DNA from: Octopus vulgaris
Lineage: Eukaryota
Assembly (NCBI GenBank): GCA_951406725.2
Contig: OX597817.1
Coordinates: 175,398,001-175,462,000, forward strand
DNA: 64,000 bases
Direction: 5' to 3'
Shown one piece after another: positions 5,873 to 60,071 of this stretch. Positions within the stretch are counted from its first letter, which is position 1. Each line of letters starts with the position of its first letter. Below the pieces are notes generated by a model that saw only the letters and a list, made by a program, of their open reading frames with translations, did no database searches and was not told where the DNA came from. A program made the position numbers and the translations under genes.

Positions 5873-7210
5873 CAGGGTGTCCATAAAGTCTCTTTGCAAT
5901 TTTAAAATTTTATTACAAAGGCAGTTGACAAGATATCTTAACCAGATTTGTTTTATTGTAATAATTGTTTATGAAAGTTTTTTAACTGTTATTTAATAGA
6001 CCTCAATATGGGTACCATTAGTAGCACGAAGCACATCAAGATGGTACTCGATTTCTTGCTATGTTCGCTGTAGGATAGCCTCATCAACGGTGGTAATGGC
6101 ATTACGAATCCTTTGCTTCAAGTCAGCAATACCCTGTATCTTTGTTTGATACACGATATATTTTACATAACCCCATAAAAAGAAGTCCAAGTGAGTGATA
6201 TCTGGCGAACGCGGTGGCCATGGAATTGGCCCATCCCTTCCAATCCATCGGTCTGCAAATGTTTGATTGAGGAACTGGCGAACATGCCATCCCCAATGTG
6301 GTGGTGCACCCTCTTGCTGGAATTTGATGGTTGTTTGTAAATCAATCAGTTGTGGTGCTACATATTCGGTCAGAAGGACGAGGTAAACATCTGCAGTAAT
6401 TGTTGCCTCGTTGAAGAAAAATGGACCAATTATTCGATTGGACATGATTCCAAACCACACATTCCCTTTTGGACTATCCCGTTGAAGCTCCCTAGTCACA
6501 TGGGGGTGTTCTGGTGCCCAGATTCCCACATTGTGTCTGTATATTTTCCCTGAAACATGAAAGTCGCCTCGTCACTAAAACAAACTCGCTTGAGGAATGC
6601 TTCATCCTCAGAAATGCGTTCCAGCATATTGAGTGCAAACTCTTTCCGTTTTTGCTTATCATTTTGCTCAAGTGCCTGTAACAGTTGGACTTTATAAGCG
6701 TACAACCGTAAGTTCTTGTGGAGGACCTTGCGCACTGTTGAACGTGGTAGTTGCAACTGTCTGGCAGCAGTGCGGATGGACTTCGTAGGAGAACGAGCAA
6801 AGGCTTTTGAAACACGATCCATGTTTTCATCAGATGTTCTTGGTCGCCCGCTCCTCCCTTTATCCAACACCGTCCCTGTCTCCATAAATTTCTTGTGCCA
6901 TGCACGAATTGAAGGACGCAATGGTGGATCTCTTCCATACTTAGTTCTGTAGTTTCGTTGAGTCTGAACATCCGATTTTGTCTCAATAAACCAGGATACA
7001 CATTGTGCCTTTTCATGAGGAGTAGCCATTTTATAGGGGTTCAGTGAATCAGTTCCCTTCCATCAACAGAGTGTCTGAAACACAAAAAATTAATATCAAT
7101 AAAAACTTTAATAAACAATTATTAAAATAAAACAAATCTGGTTAAAATATCTCATCAACTGCCTTTGTAATCATTTTTTTTTTATATTGTAAAGAGACTT
7201 TATGGACACC

Positions 7211-15306: not shown

Positions 15307-15339
15307 GCTGACAATTATCCATCGTCTGTTATTCATTTG

Positions 15340-15433
<94 letters not shown>

Positions 15434-15436
<3 letters not shown>

Positions 15437-16180
15437 CCTTCCTCCTGCAACTCAACTTGATTTCGAGCCGGGTCGTCTGCTGCTGGAGAGGACCGATCAG
15501 GTAAAGGACCTGGGTATCTTGGTGGATTCCTCCTTTTCGCCTTCGGCCCAGTGCGTCCATGCTGCCAACAAAGCACGCGGAATTCTGTTCTTGATTCGAC
15601 GGTCATTCGGAATGCTCACAGCAGCCATATTCCTACCACTCTATGTCACGCTGGTGAGACCCATATTGGAGTACGGGATTCAAGCCTCTTCTCCTTATCT
15701 CCTCAAAGACATACAGCATCTTGAAAGAGTCCAGAAGCTGGCTACCCGCATGGTTCTTGGTCTCAAAAATTTGTCCTATGAAGAAAGGCTAAGGACGCTC
15801 GATCTTTATTCTCTAGAAAAACGCCGCCGCCGTGGTGGTCTCATTCTCGCCCACAACATCAGAAGCGGAAAGTGTAACCTCTCGAAATAGCTGTTCTTCA
15901 CTCCTGCTCCAGAGCGTCGGCTGCGGGGTCATTCCGAAAAGCTCTACCTGCAACGATTTCATCTCAATCGAAGGAGAGGAGCTTTCTCCGTCCGGGTTGC
16001 TGATCCGTGGAACAAGCTGCCAGACGAGATGGTGAAGATGCCGACGACCGCTTTGTTCAAAGCCTCCCTTGACCTCAAGTGGCCTGAACTCTTTACATGA
16101 ACACCACCCTGTACTTAACTCCATGTCCCCCTACATGGCCTTGCTATTTGCTTTTGAGCCAAATTAACTAACTAACTAAC
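15434..16180 (+). mobile_element. 5'-truncated CR1-clade LINE inserted in (TA)n
   Basis: ORF2 C-terminus KDLGILVD...LYVTLVRPILEY...LERVQKLATRMV..LSYEERL..L.LYSLEKRRRRG. After an internal stop at 15888 the frame continues LRGHSEKL...FSVRVADPWNKLP to 16100. (TAAC)4 tail at 16165-16180. Confidence 0.92.
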
Positions 16181-17769: not shown

Positions 17770-18041
<272 letters not shown>

Positions 18042-18110
18042 CATATTACTCTACCACTGGTATTTGAGTACTCTTTTTTCCACCTTGTTTCACATTTATG
18101 TGTTTACTCC

Positions 18111-19565: not shown

Positions 19566-19800
19566 TATTGTATGTAGATTTTGCTGTGTCTGGGGAGAGT
19601 CAAATTGTCTTATTGCCTTATTATCTAACACACTCACCGATTCGATTTTCACTCATTTATTATTTTTATTTTTTATTTTAAAATTTTTGCTGCTTTTGCA
19701 ACCTTGTCAATAAGTGGAAATCGAATTGGTGAATGTGTTAGATAGTAAGGTATTAAGACAATATGACTCTGCCCAGATACAACAAAATTTGCTTCAACAC
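19566..19800. mobile_element. MITE-like element with about 80-bp imperfect TIRs
   Basis: ttttgctgtgtctggggagagtc...aacacactcaccgattcgatttt mirrored by aaatcgaattggtgaatgtgttag...gactctgcccagatacaacaaaa. Confidence 0.7.
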
Positions 19801-20329: not shown

Positions 20330-22620
20330 CGGCGAGAATCGTCAGCACGTTGGGCAAAATGTTTAGAAGTATTTCACCCGTCTTTACGATCTGAGTTCAA
20401 GTTCTCCCGATGTCGATTTTGCCTTTCATCCTTTCGGGGTTGATAAAGTAAACACCAGTTGAACACTGGGGTCAATGTAATCGATTTACCCCACCCCCGA
20501 AATTGCTGGCCTTGTGCCAAAATTTGTAACCAATATTTAGTAATAAATTAAGTCAGCGTGCTGGCAGAATCGTTACCGTGTCGGACAAAATGCTTAGCGG
20601 TATTACGTCCGTCTTTGAGTTCGAATTCTGCTGTGGTTGACTTTGCTTTTTATCCTTTCGGGGTCGATAAAATAAGTACCAGCTGAATACTAGAGTCGAT
20701 GTAATTCGAATAGCCCCCTCCCACATAATTTCAGAAAGGATATGAGAAACCAGAATGAATTCCATAAGACATCTCTCTGACGCTCTACAATTTCTTTTCT
20801 ATTATAGGCACAAGGGCCGAAATTTTTTTTTTTGGGGGGGGGCAGCCGATTAGATCGACCACAGTACGCAAATGGTACTCAATTTATCGACCCCGAAAGG
20901 ATTAAACGCAAAGTCGACCTCGGCAGAATTTGAACTCAGAACGTATAGACAGACGAAATACAGCTAAGCATTTCGCCCGGCGTACTAACGATTCTGTCAG
21001 CTCACCGCTTTTCACTTAATGCCCCCCCCCCGGTGGCAAGGCGAGCACGCAAATGGCGTATAAGTGGCTGATACTCGACATTCTCACTAAACGGGATGCC
21101 AATCCGTCTCAGGATAACCAATTGAGTTGAGTGAAATGGAACAACATGAAATAAAGCTTTTCGCTCAAAAACACAAGGCACCACCCGATACGGGGATCGA
21201 ATCCCCGATCGTGAGATCGTGGATACGATACCTTAACCACTAGACCACTCGCCTTCATATAGAATCTTCTACATATCTCAGAATGCTAGATACAACAGCC
21301 ATTTTTTTCTTCAAAAAGAACTCAACAACTTCATGCATGTTTATACGTTTGCTTGAATCAAAGAGCAAGATCTTCCTCAAACTTTCGGCTTCTGTCTCAT
21401 GCCATTTCAATACAATACCCAGTTACTACCGGGTACCTCAGTTTTTCAGAAACTAAACTAAAAGAGTAGTGTTAGCAATTAACATGTTTCAATATTTCAA
21501 TATTCTTTTCTACTCTTGGCACAAGGCCCGAAATTTGGGGGAATGGGGCCTGTCGATTAGCTGACCCTCGTACGCAAGTGCTACTTAATTTTTCGACCCC
21601 GAAAGGGCTCACCGCCTTGCACATGTATCAATATTAATAATAAAACTAAAGCGGTGAGCTGGTAGAATCGTTAGCAGGCCGGACAAAATGCTAAACGACA
21701 TTTCGTCTGTCAATACGCTCTGAGTCCGACTTTGCCTTTCATCCTTTCGGGGTCGATTAAATAAGTACCAGTTACGCACTGGGATCGATGTAATCGACTT
21801 AATCCGTTTGCCTGTCCTTGTTTGTCCCCTCTGTGTTTAGACCCTTGTGGGTAGTAAAGAAATAGGTGTTTCGTCTGTCTTTACGTTCTGAGTTCAAATT
21901 CCGTCGAGGTCGACTTTGCCATTCATACTTTCGGGGTCGATAAATTAGGTACTAGTTACGCACTAGGGTCGATGCAATCGACTTAATCCCTTTATCTGTC
22001 CTTGTTTGTCCCTTCTATGTTTAGCCCCTTGAAGGCAATAAAGAAATAATAATCGTTAGCAGGCCGGACAAAATGCTTAGCGATATTTCGTCCGTCAATA
22101 CGTTCTGAATTCAATATCCGCCGAGGTCGACTTTGCCTTTTATCATTTCAGGGTCGGGAAATTAAGCACCAGTTACGCACTGGGGTCGATGTAAAATTTC
22201 CCTAAAATTTCAGGCTTTGTGCCTATAATAGAAAACTATTAATAGTGAAACTAAAGCGATGAGCTGGTAGAATCGTTAGCACTCCGAGTAAAATGCTTAG
22301 CAGCATTTCGTCCGCCTGTGCTTTCCGAGTTCAAACTCTAGCGAGGTCGACTTTACATTTCATCCTTTCGGAGCCGATATAATAAATACCAGTTGAATAC
22401 TGGAGTCGATATAATCGACTTAGTCCTTTTCTGTGCCAAAATACGAAACCAATGTAAATAGTAAATCTCCGTCAGTACGTTCTGTGTTGAAATGCAGCCG
22501 AGGCTTTGCAGTTTCATTCTCTTAAGATCGATAAAATAAGTACCAGTTCTGCATTAGGGTTGGTGTAATCGACTCCCCCTCCCCTGAACTTACTGGCCCT
22601 GTGCCTAAATTTGAAGTCAA
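20330..22620. mobile_element. Dense SINE field (about 10 family A copies, one CORE-like at 21050-21260), including a head-to-tail array at 21650-22620
   Basis: Repeated gaggtcgactttgcctttcatcctttcggggtcga..aagtaccagttacgcact motif. Confidence 0.88.
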
Positions 22621-24070: not shown

Positions 24071-24123
24071 ATATATATATATATATATATAAATATATAT
24101 ATATAGCATAATTAAATCTCAGA

Positions 24124-25082
24124 ATGAGAAACTATAAGGTTAAACATAATAATGTAGGGCAAAACAGTGTACATAAAGGAGTGTACATAAAAGTGTAATG
24201 TTATACAATAAGTAAAATATGTATAAGAGAAAATAAATATAAGTACACATAGATATAAACATAGACTACATCTTACAGCTGTTTCGGCCATGTAGATAAG
24301 TATGTCTCATTTTACTTATATTAGCCATTTATGGTAGGTCAATATGTAGTTATAAATGAGACATTTACAAAAATATCCTAAGGCCTCTTTGGAGATTATG
24401 TGACACAAATCAGATTACATACATACTTATATAGGTGTGGGTACATACCCATAATAAAACATATACATATACATATGAGTGCATATACTCATACTCCCAT
24501 GACAATGATAATGATGCTAACATTAATGACATTTTGGAAATTAATAAGAATTAATATAATGTACTCTTGACTCTGTATATCTGCATTTAGGCATTAATAT
24601 GTGTATGTTTTTCTACATTGTAATTATCACAATATTAAGTTGAAAAACTGTAACATTGAATGTGGAACATATGTATGTTTATTAATTTATATTATTTATA
24701 TCATTATGTATATGTATATTTATATGTATAGGAGTATGAGTATATGCACTCATATGTATATGTATATGTTTTATTATGGGTATGTATGTAATCTGATTTG
24801 TATCACATAATTTCCGAAGAGGCCTTAGGATATTTTTGTAAATGTCTCATTTATAACTACATATTGACCTACCATAAATGGCTAATATAAGTAAAATGAG
24901 ACATACTTATCTACATGGCCGAAACAGCTGTAAGATGTAGTCTATATTTATATCTATGTGTACTTATATTTATTTTCTCTTATACATATTCTACTTATTG
25001 TATAACATTACTCTTTTATGTACACTCCTTTATGTACACTGTTTTGCCCTACATTATTATGTTTAACCTTATAGTTTCTCAT
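24124..25082. repeat. Large inverted repeat (arms 24124-24497 and 24731-25082) in a TA-flanked element (about 24106-25344)
   Basis: The arms are near-identical reverse complements of about 350-370 bp, with a 233-bp spacer. Confidence 0.95.
24810..24936 (+). ncRNA. Type I HHR-like motif with a 92-nt stem II insertion (mirror copy at 24270-24396 on minus)
   Basis: attt-CCGAAGA-ggcc[92 nt containing atgtctcattt/aaatgagacat]ggcc-GAAA-cagctg-TA-agat. The minus copy has a perfect stem I (atct/agat) but core CCAAAGA. Confidence 0.68.
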
Positions 25083-25338
25083 GTGGTGGTTTAATAAAGT
25101 ATGTGATTGAGTATTATCTAGTAATTGATATTTGATTTCGATGTATTTCTCCATTTTCTTATTTTGTATTATGAATTTGTGGTAAATCATTTTGCCTTTG
25201 CTCATATAATACTGTAAATGAATTAATTGCATCGCAATTCTTAACATTTATATATTAACTTTGTTGGGTACTTCACTAGCAGTATATTGGATATATGTTA
25301 TCCCATGGAGGGTTGCATTTACAACCCCTATCTCAATT

Positions 25339-28104: not shown

Positions 28105-28875
<771 letters not shown>

Positions 28876-32331: not shown

Positions 32332-32828
32332 CATGGAAAAATGCAAGCATCAAAAATAAGATTCTTAAGATTATAAACCCGGAAAAGTACAGGACAAGTT
32401 ATTACACCTGTAAGAGTATAGGACAAGCTATTACTTCTAGTATAAGAAACTTTTTACTTAAAATATTGCAGCTAAAATTAAAATTTGAATATTAAAAATT
32501 ATTTTATTATAGTTTTCAAATAACACTATACATATTTAAGTACAATTTGGCTACTTTACTACTTTAAATACAGAAAATAGCGACTAATTAGAAAAACTTG
32601 CAAATTAGCCGAACAGTTTTGCGCAATAAAAGATGAGAACTCTAAAGAGTGATAAATTAGAAGAACTGGCATTCTTTGCTGCAATATTTTTAGTAAAAAG
32701 TATCTTATTCTTTATTTTACTTGAAGTAGTAGTTCGTCCTATACGTTTACAGGTGTCATAACTTGTCCCGTACTTTTCCAGGTTTATAATCTTAAGAATA
32801 TTACTTTTCATGCTTGCATTTTTCCATG
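32332..32828. mobile_element. TA-flanked MITE with about 140-150-bp TIRs
   Basis: ta|catggaaaaatgcaagcat...aatattgcagc (32332-32472) mirrored by gctgcaatatt...atgcttgcatttttccatg|ta (32678-32828). Confidence 0.8.
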
Positions 32829-32919
32829 TATATATATATAAATACATGACAGTACATGAAGTTTGTTTAAAAAAAAGGGGATCATGTATATAGCTCCTGG
32901 CTGTTGAAATTATAACACC

Positions 32920-35450
32920 TCGTTGTAAACAATGTTCCTTGTTTTTCCTTGTGGAGCATATACAAAAAGGTTTCTTTTGGTTCCTACTCTTGAGCAGCCA
33001 ACATACAGTTGCCCATGCGAGAAGCAAGAGAAGACCAGCTACAGAGAGGGTTTGACCCTGAGATTTGTTAATGGACATGGCAGAGCTGACACGAAGGGGG
33101 AATTGCAGTCTTCTGAATGTAAATGGAATTTCTGCTCCTGATGGAGTAAGATGAATTCTTGGAATAAAGACGTCATCACCTTTTCCACATCCAGAAAGAA
33201 TGATCGCCTCGATAACGTGTGACATCATTTTCTTTATCACCAGTCGTGTTCCATTGCAAAGTCTTGGTGGTTCCAGTTTGCGGAGTAGCATTACAGGAGT
33301 TCCAACTTTAAGTGCTAATATGTGTGGAGGTAGTCCAGGAGGCTCCAGTGAATTGAGAAATTCAGGAGGATAGTTCACAACTCCATTTATATCTGGAATT
33401 GTATCAACAGATTTGTAAGTGTGTATAGTGCTGGGAAGAGAATGCATTAGCTGTTGATTAATTTTGTTAACAGCGACGTTTTTGGGAGCTAGTATTGCTC
33501 TTTCACACAGCCAATTGTGATTTTGGTAGTTTTGTGTGAAGTTGGGAAAGACTTCGTTTTTGAGGTCATCTACAGAATTAACAACAGAGGAAAATGACCA
33601 CACTTCCATTTGTCCTGCAGCATCGAGAGGCATCGCCTTCACCAAGTGTCAAAATGTCCTGTGCAAACTTTGTGGACATTTCGTCGCCGTGTAGCTGAGC
33701 TCTCATGTTAGTGGTGAGACTGAGGATTGTAACATGATGCCACAGGGTAGAGGACTTTAGGCATGCTTGGACTTCATCTGCTCTAGTGCCTTTCGGAATG
33801 ACAGGAAGAGCTTGCCTGAAATCACCTGACAACAGAAGTGTTACACTTCCCATTGGTGCCTGACAGTCTCGGATATCTTTCAGGGCTCTATCTAATGCTT
33901 CCAAAGCTCCCTTGTGAGCCATAGTGCACTCATCCCAGACAATTAGATGACACATTTTAAGTACTTGTCCCTGATCTGAGCTTTTGTTGATGTTGCATGA
34001 AGGCATTTCGGATGCTGCTAAATTGAGAGGGAGTTTAAAAGTTGAGTGTGCTGTCCTGCCACCAGGTAACAAAGTAGCTGCAATGCCAGAGGAGGCTACA
34101 GCTACTGCAATGTCCTGATGCTACCTAACTTCTGCAAGGAGAAGCTTTGTAATAAATGTTTTTCCTGTCTCCCCAGGAACACCGAGGAGGAAGATTCGTC
34201 CCTCACGTTGGCGTACACTGTTAAGAATAGTTCTGTAGGCCTGCAGCTGGTCCGGAAGTAATTTAGGCTCATTTTCAACAATGTACATTGAAAGCGCTTG
34301 AGTGTCGTAGGTTGTTTCACGAATGACAGCAGTGGGAAGGCTATTTGACTCTGACCTGAATGCTTGTGGCAGGCCATACGTCGACAATTCATTTCCACCC
34401 AGTTTAGCAATTCTGTCTTCAATGTCAATGAGTGTTTTGTTATATATTTCATTGTTGATACCCTCCATGTCAGGATAGAGTAGTTGAGCTTGGCGCTGAA
34501 AGTCTTCAGCCAGGTTGTCTCTATATTTGAGCCATAGAGTGGCCGGATCACAAAGTTCGCATGCCTGAAGTAATACTGCAAATAGTGCCCTGAGACTTTT
34601 AGGTGATTGTAATAAAGCAGCCTCTCCTAAAGTTGTATCCCATTGTGCACCATCTTCTAACAGACCTTGTCGATAGCAGGCTTCTCTGTATGTTGTGCAG
34701 ACATGTCCATGAACGGTTTTTAGGGCCTGGAAAGACGTTGGCCCTCTGACCTCATGCAGTAGTAGACGAAGGTAGAAGCACTGTTGTTGAGTGGAATGCA
34801 CTGTGTATACTCGCCCAAAGCAAGTGTGAAACTTAATGCCAGGGTATCCATGAACATTTTGATTTGCTTTCCGTGGGGCCCATTTTTTTCCAAGTGTAGT
34901 ACGATGAAATCTGTGGATACAGCAAGGTTTGAGCGAATGGATCCACTTGACAAAGCTTGAAGAATGCAGTGAGTGTGCTATCCCTTGGTTCCTCTGGCAA
35001 CAGAGAAGCATTAGTATCGGTGAAGTACACTCTTTGACCATTTTCCAGGTGCACTGCAAGCTGTTGAATGGCGGGGTGTCGTTGGTGAATTGGAAAGCCA
35101 AAGATGCGCCAGAAAGCCTCGTTGCTACTTATGTACCGTCCCACCTGATAATGCGTCACCTCATCCTGGCAGTATTCTTGTTGAAGTCCAAACATTGCAG
35201 CGTCAGAACCCTTGTTTACATATTTGCAAACGTACTTGATGGATTTAACGGAGTTGCAAAACTCAACGTTGATGTGGGCATTGAAAGTCTTTGACAGGAA
35301 TGGGCAGTATGGAACAATCCATCTATTATCAATGTCGTGCTGCCCGATCTTGTCCTCCCTCTTGTATAGAAGTGTACGGCTGCAGTGAAATTAATTTTTG
35401 GACTTTCTTCTATCGAAGGCATTTTAACAAAAATGCTTCCGTAAAGACGG
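32920..35450 (-). pseudogene. Helitron RepHel relic (Rep C-terminus plus Pif1 helicase) with multiple frameshifts
   Basis: AHINVEFCNSVKSIKYVCKYVNKGSD (Rep YxxKY motif), RYISSNEAFWRIF, YLRLLLHEVRGPTSF, GETGKTF, GGRTAHSTFKLP, WDECTM, GDFRQALPV, LCNGTRL, QFPLRVSSAMSINKSQGQTL. Confidence 0.95.
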
Positions 35451-36124: not shown

Positions 36125-36668
36125 AATGAGAGAGCAGTGCATGTCATCAAAATGATACTGGGTAAAATATGCGAAACCCAGTATACCCACCATGACTACC
36201 CGTCTGACAAGGGTACACCAGGAACATGCATCATAACCATATGTGCGCGACATGGTGATCTCATATCAAGATAAACAGGGCATGACCTTGCAGGTGGGCC
36301 CAATTAGAATTTTCTTCAGGTCGAGCTGCCTATCCCACTCAAAAGGTCCCTGAAAAAGGGTTGTTTAAGGATGTTAAACGAAACACTCATGTTTCCAGAG
36401 GTGAATTATCCAAACCCCCAAAGAATTTCTCTCAACACATGGCTATGATGCTTCCCCACTATTTCTGTTCCTTATTAGAGATACGCATATCTTCAGCCAC
36501 TAAAGGACATGCTCAACTGGGTAAGGTCAAGCAACTGACAAGTAAATCTGTGGTATTGAGCAGAATATTTGCTGTAGCCCGTTTTTTATACCAAGACAAA
36601 ACAATGTACGTGATAACACTTCCAGTCAGCTAAGATCAGAAGCCATGAGAGCCACTGCTTAGTACTGC
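36125..36668 (+). mobile_element. Interspersed repeat of about 540 bp, unclassified
   Basis: Close reverse-complement copy at 63466-64000. The strand label is arbitrary. Confidence 0.85.
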
Positions 36669-56799: not shown

Positions 56800-56833
<34 letters not shown>

Positions 56834-56838
<5 letters not shown>

Positions 56839-57042
56839 GAAATGAAGAAAATGCTGACAAATAATTGAAGTAATTTAAGTAATTTAATTAGGTGAAAGTT
56901 CTTTTTACCGGTTGCGCATTTGTTATGCTTATCAAAACAAATGCTTATCATAACAAATGCGCAACCGGTAAAAATAACTTTCACCTAATTAAATTACTTA
57001 AATTACTTCAATTATTTGTCAGCATTTTCTTCATTTCCTTTT
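56834..57042. repeat. Inverted repeat, 94-bp arms, 21-bp spacer, TA-flanked, with a decayed HHR-like motif
   Basis: Arms 56834-56927 and 56949-57042. Minus strand 56902-56938 reads TTGATAA-gcat[aacaa]atgc-GCAA-ccgg-TA-aaaa. Confidence 0.93.
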
Positions 57043-57082
57043 TTATATATCACCACTCGTGTTCGACATCTCCTTTTTTTAA

Positions 57083-57131
<49 letters not shown>

Positions 57132-57611
57132 CATGTATATATACATACATATAAAAATAACCCAACAATTGCTGCTTCGGCCAGGGTCAAGATACAGGAC
57201 TCTTGACCTGTCCAACAAAGCGTGATGCCTAAACCAATCAGCTCAACCAACCAATCAGCTTAAGTAATTGAGTGATACTACACACTGATTGGTCAGAATA
57301 CAGTTTGCAAAACCTAGCACTCTGGAGTCTACCCAGCTGTATTTATAGCACAGAATCACTCATCTTGCTACAGTCAAAAATTGTGAAGCATGACTGTCAA
57401 CACTACTACATGAACCCGAAGATTGCAGAATTCAATGCATGAAAGTACTAGTTCAATCAGAATGAATATTTAACATTCTACTATTTCATTTTATTTTATT
57501 CAATTATAATATATTATCTTATAATATATCATTATAAGATTGTAAATAAAACGTGAAAATCAGACAAGGTTGGAATTCTTTTTATTTATATATATATATA
57601 TATACACAAAC

Positions 57612-58677: not shown

Positions 58678-59130
58678 CGCCATGATAGATCGCTATCCAC
58701 TAAACCCATTTCTATTTTCTCTCCCTGTTTATTTCTGTGTTCCTTTCTGTGGAAGAGCGTAGGCTCAAAACGCAAAAGACTTTCTCACTCCCCGAGCCTT
58801 AAACTAATACACCTGTTTGTTGTTTACACACCCGTCTTCGTCTTTTGTAAATTCTCACTATCTTTATATATATATATATATATATGTACGGAGAATTCAC
58901 ACAAAAAAAAAGGCAGGTGGTGTAGACAACAAATAGATGTATTAGTATAACGCTCTGGAAGTGAAAAAGTCTTTAACGTTTCGAGCCTACGCTCTTCCAC
59001 AGAAAGGAACACAGGAAGAAACAAGGAGAGAAAATAAAGAATGTGTAGTGGCTTGTGATCTATCATGGCGAAGGCCGGACAGAAGGGTCACACAGGAGAG
59101 CTAGGGAGAAGGGGAGATAACAAAGTGGTG
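58678..59130. mobile_element. Two diverged copies of an HHR-like element, tail-to-tail across a (TA)n tract
   Basis: Plus copy at 58678-58860 (motif 58743-58778, GAAA>AAAA). Minus copy at about 58890-59130 (motif 58971-59006: cttt-CTGTGGA-a-gagc[gtag]gctc-GAAA-cg-TT-aaag). Confidence 0.75.
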
Positions 59131-59177
<47 letters not shown>

Positions 59178-59456
59178 TTAATAAGGGTGAGAGAATTAGA
59201 TACTAATTTAATAGCATATCTATTCAACACCAAGTGGCCCAGTGCCTCGAGAAACCTGGATTATTATAATATTTTATAATATATTATAATATTTTATACA
59301 AAAATAAATATAAGAGAGTGGTCACTATGTGGCTCATTCTAGCACTAGAAAATCCAAAAGGTTTCAACCACAAAAATACGTTGTTTCCTATGAAAGTCAG
59401 TACGATTGTTAGCTCACACGAACAGGGCAAATAAAAAATAACAAAAATACAGATTA

Positions 59457-59537
59457 TTTTGGGACAATTGTTTCGCTATTAATGAATTAAATGTAATTTT
59501 ACTTACAAAAAACCCACTTGTAGCTCCTCAGCCAAAA
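59457..59537 (-). ncRNA. Canonical type I hammerhead ribozyme motif (left arm)
   Basis: Exact mirror of 59724-59804. Confidence 0.85.
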
Positions 59538-59723
59538 CTATCTGGATGAAATCCACTCAATCACACGCCAGATTTTACCATAACGATAAATACACGTGTG
59601 GTTCAATTGATTTGTTGGTAAGGGCATTTGAATTATAACGTCGGATGTAATCAATTGAACCACACGTGTATTTATCGTTATGGTAAAATCTGGCGTGTGA
59701 TTGAGTGGATTTCATCCAGATAG

Positions 59724-59804
59724 TTTTGGCTGAGGAGCTACAAGTGGGTTTTTTGTAAGTAAAATTACATTTAATTCATTAATAGCGAAACAATTGTCCC
59801 AAAA
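59724..59804 (+). ncRNA. Canonical type I hammerhead ribozyme motif (right arm)
   Basis: ttttgg-CTGAGGA-gcta[42 nt]tagc-GAAA-caattg-TC-ccaaaa. 6-bp stem I, complete CUGANGA/GAAA core, G10.1-C11.1 pair, palindromic stem III ACAATTGT, GUC site at 59796-59798. Confidence 0.87.
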
Positions 59805-60071
59805 TAATCTGTATTTTTGTTATTTTTTATTTGCCCTGTTCGTGTGAGCTAACAATCGTACTGACTTTCATAGGAAACATGTATTTTTGTGGTTGAAACC
59901 TTTTGGATTTTCTAGTGCTAGAATGAGCCACATAGTGACCATTCTCTTATATTTATTATTTATTTTTATTTTTATATATATATATATATATAATGCCAGT
60001 GCCGAAGCATGGGCACAGCTCATGAGCTGAAACTAGATAAAAAAAGATATATATGATAGAGCGAGTGAGAA

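Follow-up and report, generated by a model that had tools for sequence, protein, structure and literature searches.

Head-to-head palindrome of a young, non-coding 535-nt hammerhead repeat in Octopus vulgaris, likely inserted in trans by a Penelope-like element

The canonical type I hammerhead of animals and its action as a dimer were defined in PMC4209133, the available part of which also describes dual motifs lying ~100-700 bp apart on opposite strands in Penelope-like elements (PLEs). Insertions of PLEs carry an inverted pLTR, have a tail of 30-40 bp on one end and are biased towards microsatellites (PMC3846280, PMC8557442; accessible sections). For an anole PLE, the accessible text of PMC11167929 reports cleavage of both strands in vitro, two RT start sites that delimit the tail and a predicted dimer; insertion in vitro did not need the ribozyme. 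Non-LTR retrozymes were defined in PMC7229834 and 10.64898/2026.07.22.740005, the sections available proposing PLEs as their mobilisers and leaving the mechanism open. Eight of nine Xenopus dimers failed to cleave in vitro (PMC7229834 / 10.64898/2026.07.22.740005; same sections). Here we describe a palindrome in Octopus vulgaris that has likenesses to each of these systems.

The window was a 64-kb stretch of DNA (64,000 nt), and the genome searched comprised 2.8 Gb in 227 contigs. An initial annotation of the window had marked a young palindrome with arms of ~310 bp at 59303..59957. These arms were recovered: the alignment of 59300/59303-59612 with 59649-59957/59960 contains two substitutions and a single indel, complementarity is perfect over 231 bp, and 36 nt separate the arms. 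The extent originally given was too short, the left arm running on for another 131 nt, to 59169. Searches of the genome showed the arm to be a copy of a young repeat (1326 first-look candidates, the best 40 of which scored 98-100% identical), and mapping of 40 loci yielded a head-to-tail unit of 535 nt. Unit positions were numbered m1-535 on a reference copy, in which the ribozyme cut falls after m373. Two 3' end positions were designated site A (~m535) and site B (m131); site B lies 131 nt downstream of site A.

Mapped onto the unit, the left arm (59169..59612, - strand, 444 nt; L001 1039-1482) runs from m224 through m535 to m131 and has its 3' end at site B. Its outer 131 nt (59169..59299, - strand), corresponding to m1-131, form a one-sided tail missing from the right arm. 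Beyond this tail lies a (TA)n run (59134..59168), the likely target microsatellite, as 3' ends of the family adjoin (TA)n. The right arm (59613..59960, + strand, 345-348 nt) covers m188-m535 and has its 3' end at site A. The 36-nt 'spacer' (59613..59648, + strand) is the repeat's own sequence, m188-223, and belongs to the right arm only. The 5'-to-5' junction, 59612|59613, is blunt, with zero microhomology. At the site-A end a short reiterated A/T stutter gives way to (TA)n (59958..59992, + strand); comparable stutters occur at other site-A ends, and this one likely arose when initiation slipped, with the target microsatellite lying beyond it. Each arm holds less than one unit, with one ribozyme motif per strand, and the two together lack m132-187 (56 nt of the unit). 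The flanks are not mirrored, the arm ends are unequal and the arms differ at three places, one of which, m517, has two alleles that both segregate in the family.

A recent origin, proposed in the initial annotation, was borne out by the ~1% divergence of the arms and by the identity of the best 40 of the genomic candidates. PMC13282606 quotes 0.09 substitutions per 25 million years; if that scale applies here, three differences per 310 bp would correspond to an age of roughly 1-1.5 million years. The copy may be younger, because one of the arm differences is a family polymorphism.

A structure-based scan confirmed the hammerhead reported for each strand. The + strand motif spans 59723..59805, with C3 at 59730, where the core begins, and a cut predicted after C59798 from scan and folding; the - strand motif spans 59456..59538, with C3 at 59531 and a cut predicted after 59463. 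Both have a helix I of 7 bp, a helix II of 4 bp and an intact core. On the + strand, GAAA lies at 59787-59790, a palindromic helix III at 59791-59796, and helix II bears a long structured extension. The conserved core of type I hammerheads (CUGANGA / GAAA / UH), three helices and G10.1-C11.1 were all present, following the definition in the available part of PMC4209133. The description 'fully canonical' holds for the core; the 3' strand of helix I had been misread, containing four A and not five. The scan of the 64-kb window found no other well-formed hammerhead, a single third match at 36496 being weak. Rfam hammerhead models gave no match, neither at the gathering score nor at E<=10, likely owing to the long helix II extension. 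Sub-threshold matches to Rfam microRNA hairpins were rejected, being produced by the palindromes.

The 101-nt segment 59715-59815 folded at -25.6 kcal/mol (z -4.2), and none of 200 shuffles was equally stable. Helix III consists of one Watson-Crick pair around a 6-nt palindromic loop, and the monomer is for this reason predicted to be weak. In the computed energies, the helix III hairpin came to +2.4 to +4.1 kcal/mol vs -3.0 to -6.4 kcal/mol for the two-strand duplex, so that the short helix with its palindromic loop favours a dimer. Other hammerhead families in the Octopus genome have different palindromes in helix III. Dimeric cleavage, earlier read from the palindromic stem III, fits the animal type I as given in the available part of PMC4209133, but not as a dimer within the palindrome transcript: the two motifs are on opposite strands and are unable to dimerise in one transcript. 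The context for the dimer is the family's tandem arrays, not this palindrome.

Exact 24-mers over the core matched 679 sites genome-wide, of which 264 have G at position 7 and 415 a different base there (A or C among the matches listed), and a reversed-control 24-mer matched none genome-wide. Position 7, a free position, has three common alleles, whereas G8 changes numbered 7 vs 679 intact, a contrast that depends on few founding events. Polymorphic sites made up 2/40 positions in the ribozyme core and stems vs 34/402 in the rest of the unit, a non-significant difference (p=0.76), so that selection on the ribozyme core is suggested and no more.

The wider family is non-coding. Besides the unit, 20 of 20 ten-kb loci had no common sequence over 600 bp; no frame of at least 110 aa was found across the element, nor any shared coding flank, and the 535-nt repeat has no RT + GIY-YIG endonuclease ORF of the kind that marks an autonomous PLE. 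When the segment lying between site B and the ribozyme was used as the query, unit copies alone were matched. The unit has a GC content of 31.6%; its monomer, taken from cut to cut and folded as a circle, is predicted to be strongly self-paired (z -6.7 vs 40 shuffles). Across the family, units are repeated head-to-tail with a type I hammerhead motif in consecutive units, and pure arrays of 2-22 units are scattered on many contigs. By its anatomy, the repeat would be classed as a non-LTR retrozyme family. The array of ~22 units (11.9 kb; G000:C9:19855041-19866987, fetched as L115:8042-10000 + L116:1-2988) begins 16 nt ahead of the cut site, has its other end at site A within (TA)n and resembles a single long insertion; of its 21 full units, 20 are identical.

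This genome contains three or more additional repeat families that bear hammerheads (L079:1-560 with L197-L221; L104 and L074). The L079 family (2430 first-look candidates) also forms head-to-head palindromes in (TA)n, with a one-sided tail of ~100 nt. Compared with shuffled sequences, the similarity of the 535-nt repeat to a second family of this kind (L079, L104) showed no significance (49 vs a shuffled maximum of 60; 36 vs 50).

Insertion ends were scored in two samples, both biased: 51 insertions that were top matches to queries from the window's subfamily, and 45 loci from core-pattern matches on contigs C1-C5, their ends unseen beforehand, partly chosen for neighbouring matches on both strands. 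Duplicate windows on one insertion (L133, L140, L143, L168, L263 and repeated loci of the C9 array) were removed before counting. In the first sample 35/51 insertions were head-to-head and 16 single-direction. Thirty-one of these 35 paired one end at site A with one at site B (A+B), and four had one atypical end, two still in (TA)n and two entering unrelated sequence. The second sample contained 28 head-to-head insertions among its 45 loci (26 A+B, 1 atypical, 1 running past the fetched stretch), and longer stretches resolved this last one and one further insertion as A+B. In total, 59 of 64 head-to-head insertions were A+B, five had one atypical end, and none was A+A or B+B. Insertions face outwards, and any target-site duplication is unreadable within (TA)n. 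Inverted 5'-truncated head-to-head copies, a tail at one end and an AT-rich or microsatellite target together constitute a PLE-like footprint. Literature searches covering few subscription journals gave no account of the 535-nt family or of a rule that strictly pairs one end of each kind.

Junction position and arm lengths varied from locus to locus, each insertion having its own junction, and the overlap at the junction was 0-4 nt in 27/35 head-to-head insertions of the first sample. The 5' ends were dispersed over the unit with no enrichment at the cut site (3/85 within m365-380, ~2.5 expected). Head-to-head copies had up to 8 units in one arm. The ribozyme cut site was crossed by 133/151 arms, which argues that the template would have been a ligated circle or an uncleaved multimer and not a cut linear monomer.

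Such regularity bears on whether the inversion could be an artefact of assembly or of chimeric reads. Short-read contigs from three studies list no piece bridging the exact 59612|59613 junction, as such an artefact would have it. The same contigs contain the 535-nt family and its arm-to-arm joints at many other breakpoints (15/20 among the joints listed), with the reservation that one run may be the assembly's source. Together with the unmirrored flanks, the three arm differences and the unequal ends at the locus, and an end rule of biological character obeyed across 64 loci, this makes an artefact extremely unlikely.

The two arms of an insertion appear to share one template. Opposite arms diverged by 1.03% vs 2.47% between insertions in the first set, and by 0.29% vs 1.20% between insertions within the subfamily in the second. 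Twenty-five alleles confined to one sampled insertion occurred on both arms, in 18/58 insertions and often in every unit; 'private' here means private among ~95 sampled loci, and the compared pairs are not independent. Gene conversion could contribute to the similarity of the arms. The near-identity of the arms and their common private alleles would also be accounted for if the second arm came from a single cDNA that folded back and primed itself, or from inversion and gene conversion at a later time, and the accessible part of PMC3846280 puts forward self-priming as the origin of PLE inversions. At the palindrome, however, the right arm has m188-223 and the left arm m1-131, each missing from the other; neither arm therefore copies the other, and, judged by length, the same is true of 20/31 A+B insertions. 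The outer ends of both arms lie in (TA)n and are exact ends of the initiation type, and the short junction overlaps in 27/35 insertions likewise speak against fold-back, which we regard as improbable compared with separate priming of the two arms.

Two arrays mixed intact and broken cores. In a head-to-head insertion on contig C3 (G000:C3, ~179746900-179753700; L274:4944-8501 + L253:1-4919), the long arm reads intact, dead, dead, intact, dead, intact, dead, intact, dead, intact, the dead units being G8A. This near-alternation, with one break, fits a dimeric circle of 1070 nt cut only at the working ribozyme. The second array, also head-to-head (L275:2243-8308, G000:C1), has 12 ribozyme units, 9 of them U4C, mixed without period on both arms; this points to a multimeric template of mixed units, or to conversion afterwards. 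A circle of one monomer is therefore not a sufficient explanation.

A transcript from either strand of the palindrome contains the antisense copy before the ribozyme, as the initial annotation had stated, and the competition it had proposed between hairpin and ribozyme was reproduced in predicted folding: helix I and helix II each had a probability of 0.99 when the right arm was folded by itself, falling to 0.00, on either strand, once the full or the nascent palindrome was folded. This predicted loss of all ribozyme folding from the full palindrome, and cores intact on both strands, would suit a selected regulatory device in which the hairpin controls whether a host or element transcript cleaves itself, the reading implied earlier. 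Against this, no two loci are alike in junction position and arm lengths, many palindromes have the ribozyme on one arm only or several per arm, youth alone would leave the cores intact, and 11 self-palindromes of at least 80 bp lie in the 64-kb window. We consider a regulatory device very improbable. The idea of a special or purposeful arrangement was not supported; with 35/51 first-sample insertions head-to-head, the palindrome is a routine footprint. The locus itself is ordinary; it is non-autonomous and behaves like a PLE insertion. This copy is likely a dead end: it is without m132-187, has one ribozyme per strand, and its read-through transcript is predicted to form a 310-bp hairpin without a ribozyme fold.

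Many RT+GIY-YIG elements are present in the genome (GIY-YIG family search; 6136 and 15858 first-look candidates). Among them is a young coding PLE family (L102-L107) with many open RT+GIY-YIG frames of 781 aa, an upstream frame of 360-400 aa for which no Pfam match was found, and, within the 3' repeat, a minimal hammerhead variant bearing U3-A8; this family is a candidate source of the enzyme. Coding RT+GIY-YIG elements have 3' ends in (TA)n, with optional tails of ~30 nt, or ~55 nt in a second family, and two coding copies (L101, L109) are head-to-head inversions. Comparison of 64 PLE loci (14 extended, plus the second family) with the 535-nt unit gave no significant match, weak AT-rich stretches only. 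We infer the partner PLE from the footprint, because none of the compared loci shares significant sequence.

The unit could alternatively be the pseudo-LTR of an autonomous PLE not yet located, its loci being 5'-truncated stubs of that element. Target, inversion and tail behaviour of the unit do match those of coding PLEs, and the comparison covered 64 PLE loci out of 6136 and 15858 first-look candidates. However, what lies upstream of the unit was always unit, inversion or flank and never shared coding sequence (20 ten-kb and ~75 shorter loci), pure 2-22-unit arrays are spread across many contigs, and the unit's hammerhead is of the canonical helix-III type vs the degenerate motifs of the coding families examined. 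A pseudo-LTR origin thus seems unlikely.

The palindrome is, with good confidence, a partial head-to-head insertion of a young non-coding 535-nt hammerhead repeat, likely pasted into (TA)n by a PLE RT-endonuclease acting in trans. In the mechanism we propose, the PLE protein would nick both strands of (TA)n, and cDNA synthesis on one RNA would be primed at site A from one nick and at site B from the other. With a ligated circle or uncleaved multimer as template RNA, both cDNAs would proceed upstream over the cut site and halt at random points, and the two would then be joined at their 5' ends with 0-4 nt of microhomology. In tandem arrays the ribozyme would cut multimers, probably as a dimer, to 535-nt monomers able to circularise.

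A broader reading, which we advance tentatively and hold to be somewhat short of probable, is that the family records the mobilisation of a retrozyme by a PLE enzyme, probably acting as a dimer, with obligatory A+B priming and with both polymerases circling the same ribozyme-made circular RNA. If so, this priming and circling together would explain arms of several units (up to 8) and the occurrence of private variants throughout the units of the two arms, and the near-alternating intact and dead units of one array would follow from a dimeric circle in which the working ribozyme alone is cut. PLEs in general would owe their inverted pLTR and their tail at one end to the same priming step.

The window holds other features. 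A 5'-truncated terminal piece at 57151-57590 (+ strand) is 99.5% identical to the 3' end of the coding RT+GIY-YIG element L109, ends in (TA)n and has a degenerate hammerhead-like motif near 57413-57455. At 56826-57050 a small head-to-head palindrome (92%) lies between TA runs; it has near-identical copies, seven fetched loci matching, and is likely another PLE-type stub. At 58678-59070 two copies of an abundant repeat lie tail to tail around a central (TA)n; the pair is older (82%), and a degenerate minimal hammerhead-like motif was seen by eye in each copy. Eight further self-palindromes of 100-1000 bp were recorded (662-765, 2331-2661, 17892-18046, 19578-19788, 20560-21001, 24111-25095, 28371-28515 and 28561-28664), palindromes being common in the window. 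Open frames at 6059-7062 (- strand), 15312-15890 (+ strand) and 32605-35390 (- strand) were judged by eye and are presumably remnants of a Tc1/mariner transposase, a LINE and a Helitron helicase, respectively.

As a short, young and abundant substrate, the 535-nt family bears on which enzyme mobilises animal retrozymes, and on how PLEs produce inverted copies tailed on one side. The strict A+B rule and the variants shared between arms lead to sharply defined predictions for the PLE assay already available in vitro. Palindromes of this kind, if read through, would yield long double-stranded RNA.

Compared with known systems, the locus resembles the paired PLE hammerheads of PMC4209133 in having cores ~200 bp apart, a palindromic helix III and predicted dimeric activity. 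In the available part of that paper, however, the dual motifs are minimal, without helix III, and belong to coding PLEs, whereas the helix I of 6-7 bp, helix II of 4 bp and short helix III found here correspond to what it terms the 'canonical' animal type. With animal non-LTR retrozymes, as described in the accessible sections of PMC7229834 and 10.64898/2026.07.22.740005, the family shares non-coding units repeated head-to-tail, each with one type I hammerhead, forms from monomers to multimers, low GC, a strongly self-paired predicted circle and the presence of PLEs in the same genome. Its unit of 535 nt exceeds the 170-400 nt reported for invertebrate retrozymes and falls within the 51-972 bp of Li et al. 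2026, in the sections of these sources available, and its long structured helix II extension is a difference from retrozymes as described there. PLE-type footprints (inversion, one-sided tail, (TA)n) are clear here and were not found described for retrozymes in those sections of PMC7229834 and 10.64898/2026.07.22.740005. Likeness to PLE insertions (PMC3846280, PMC8557442, PMC11167929; parts available) extends to 5'-truncated head-to-head copies, a tail at one end, a microsatellite or AT-rich target, two fixed 3' ends that match the two RT start sites, and a hammerhead near the 3' end. The 535-nt family differs from PLE insertions, as they are described in these parts, in having no ORF, a tail of 131 nt vs 30-40 nt, arms of up to many units, and junctions that are blunt or of short microhomology where PLE insertions have short palindromes.
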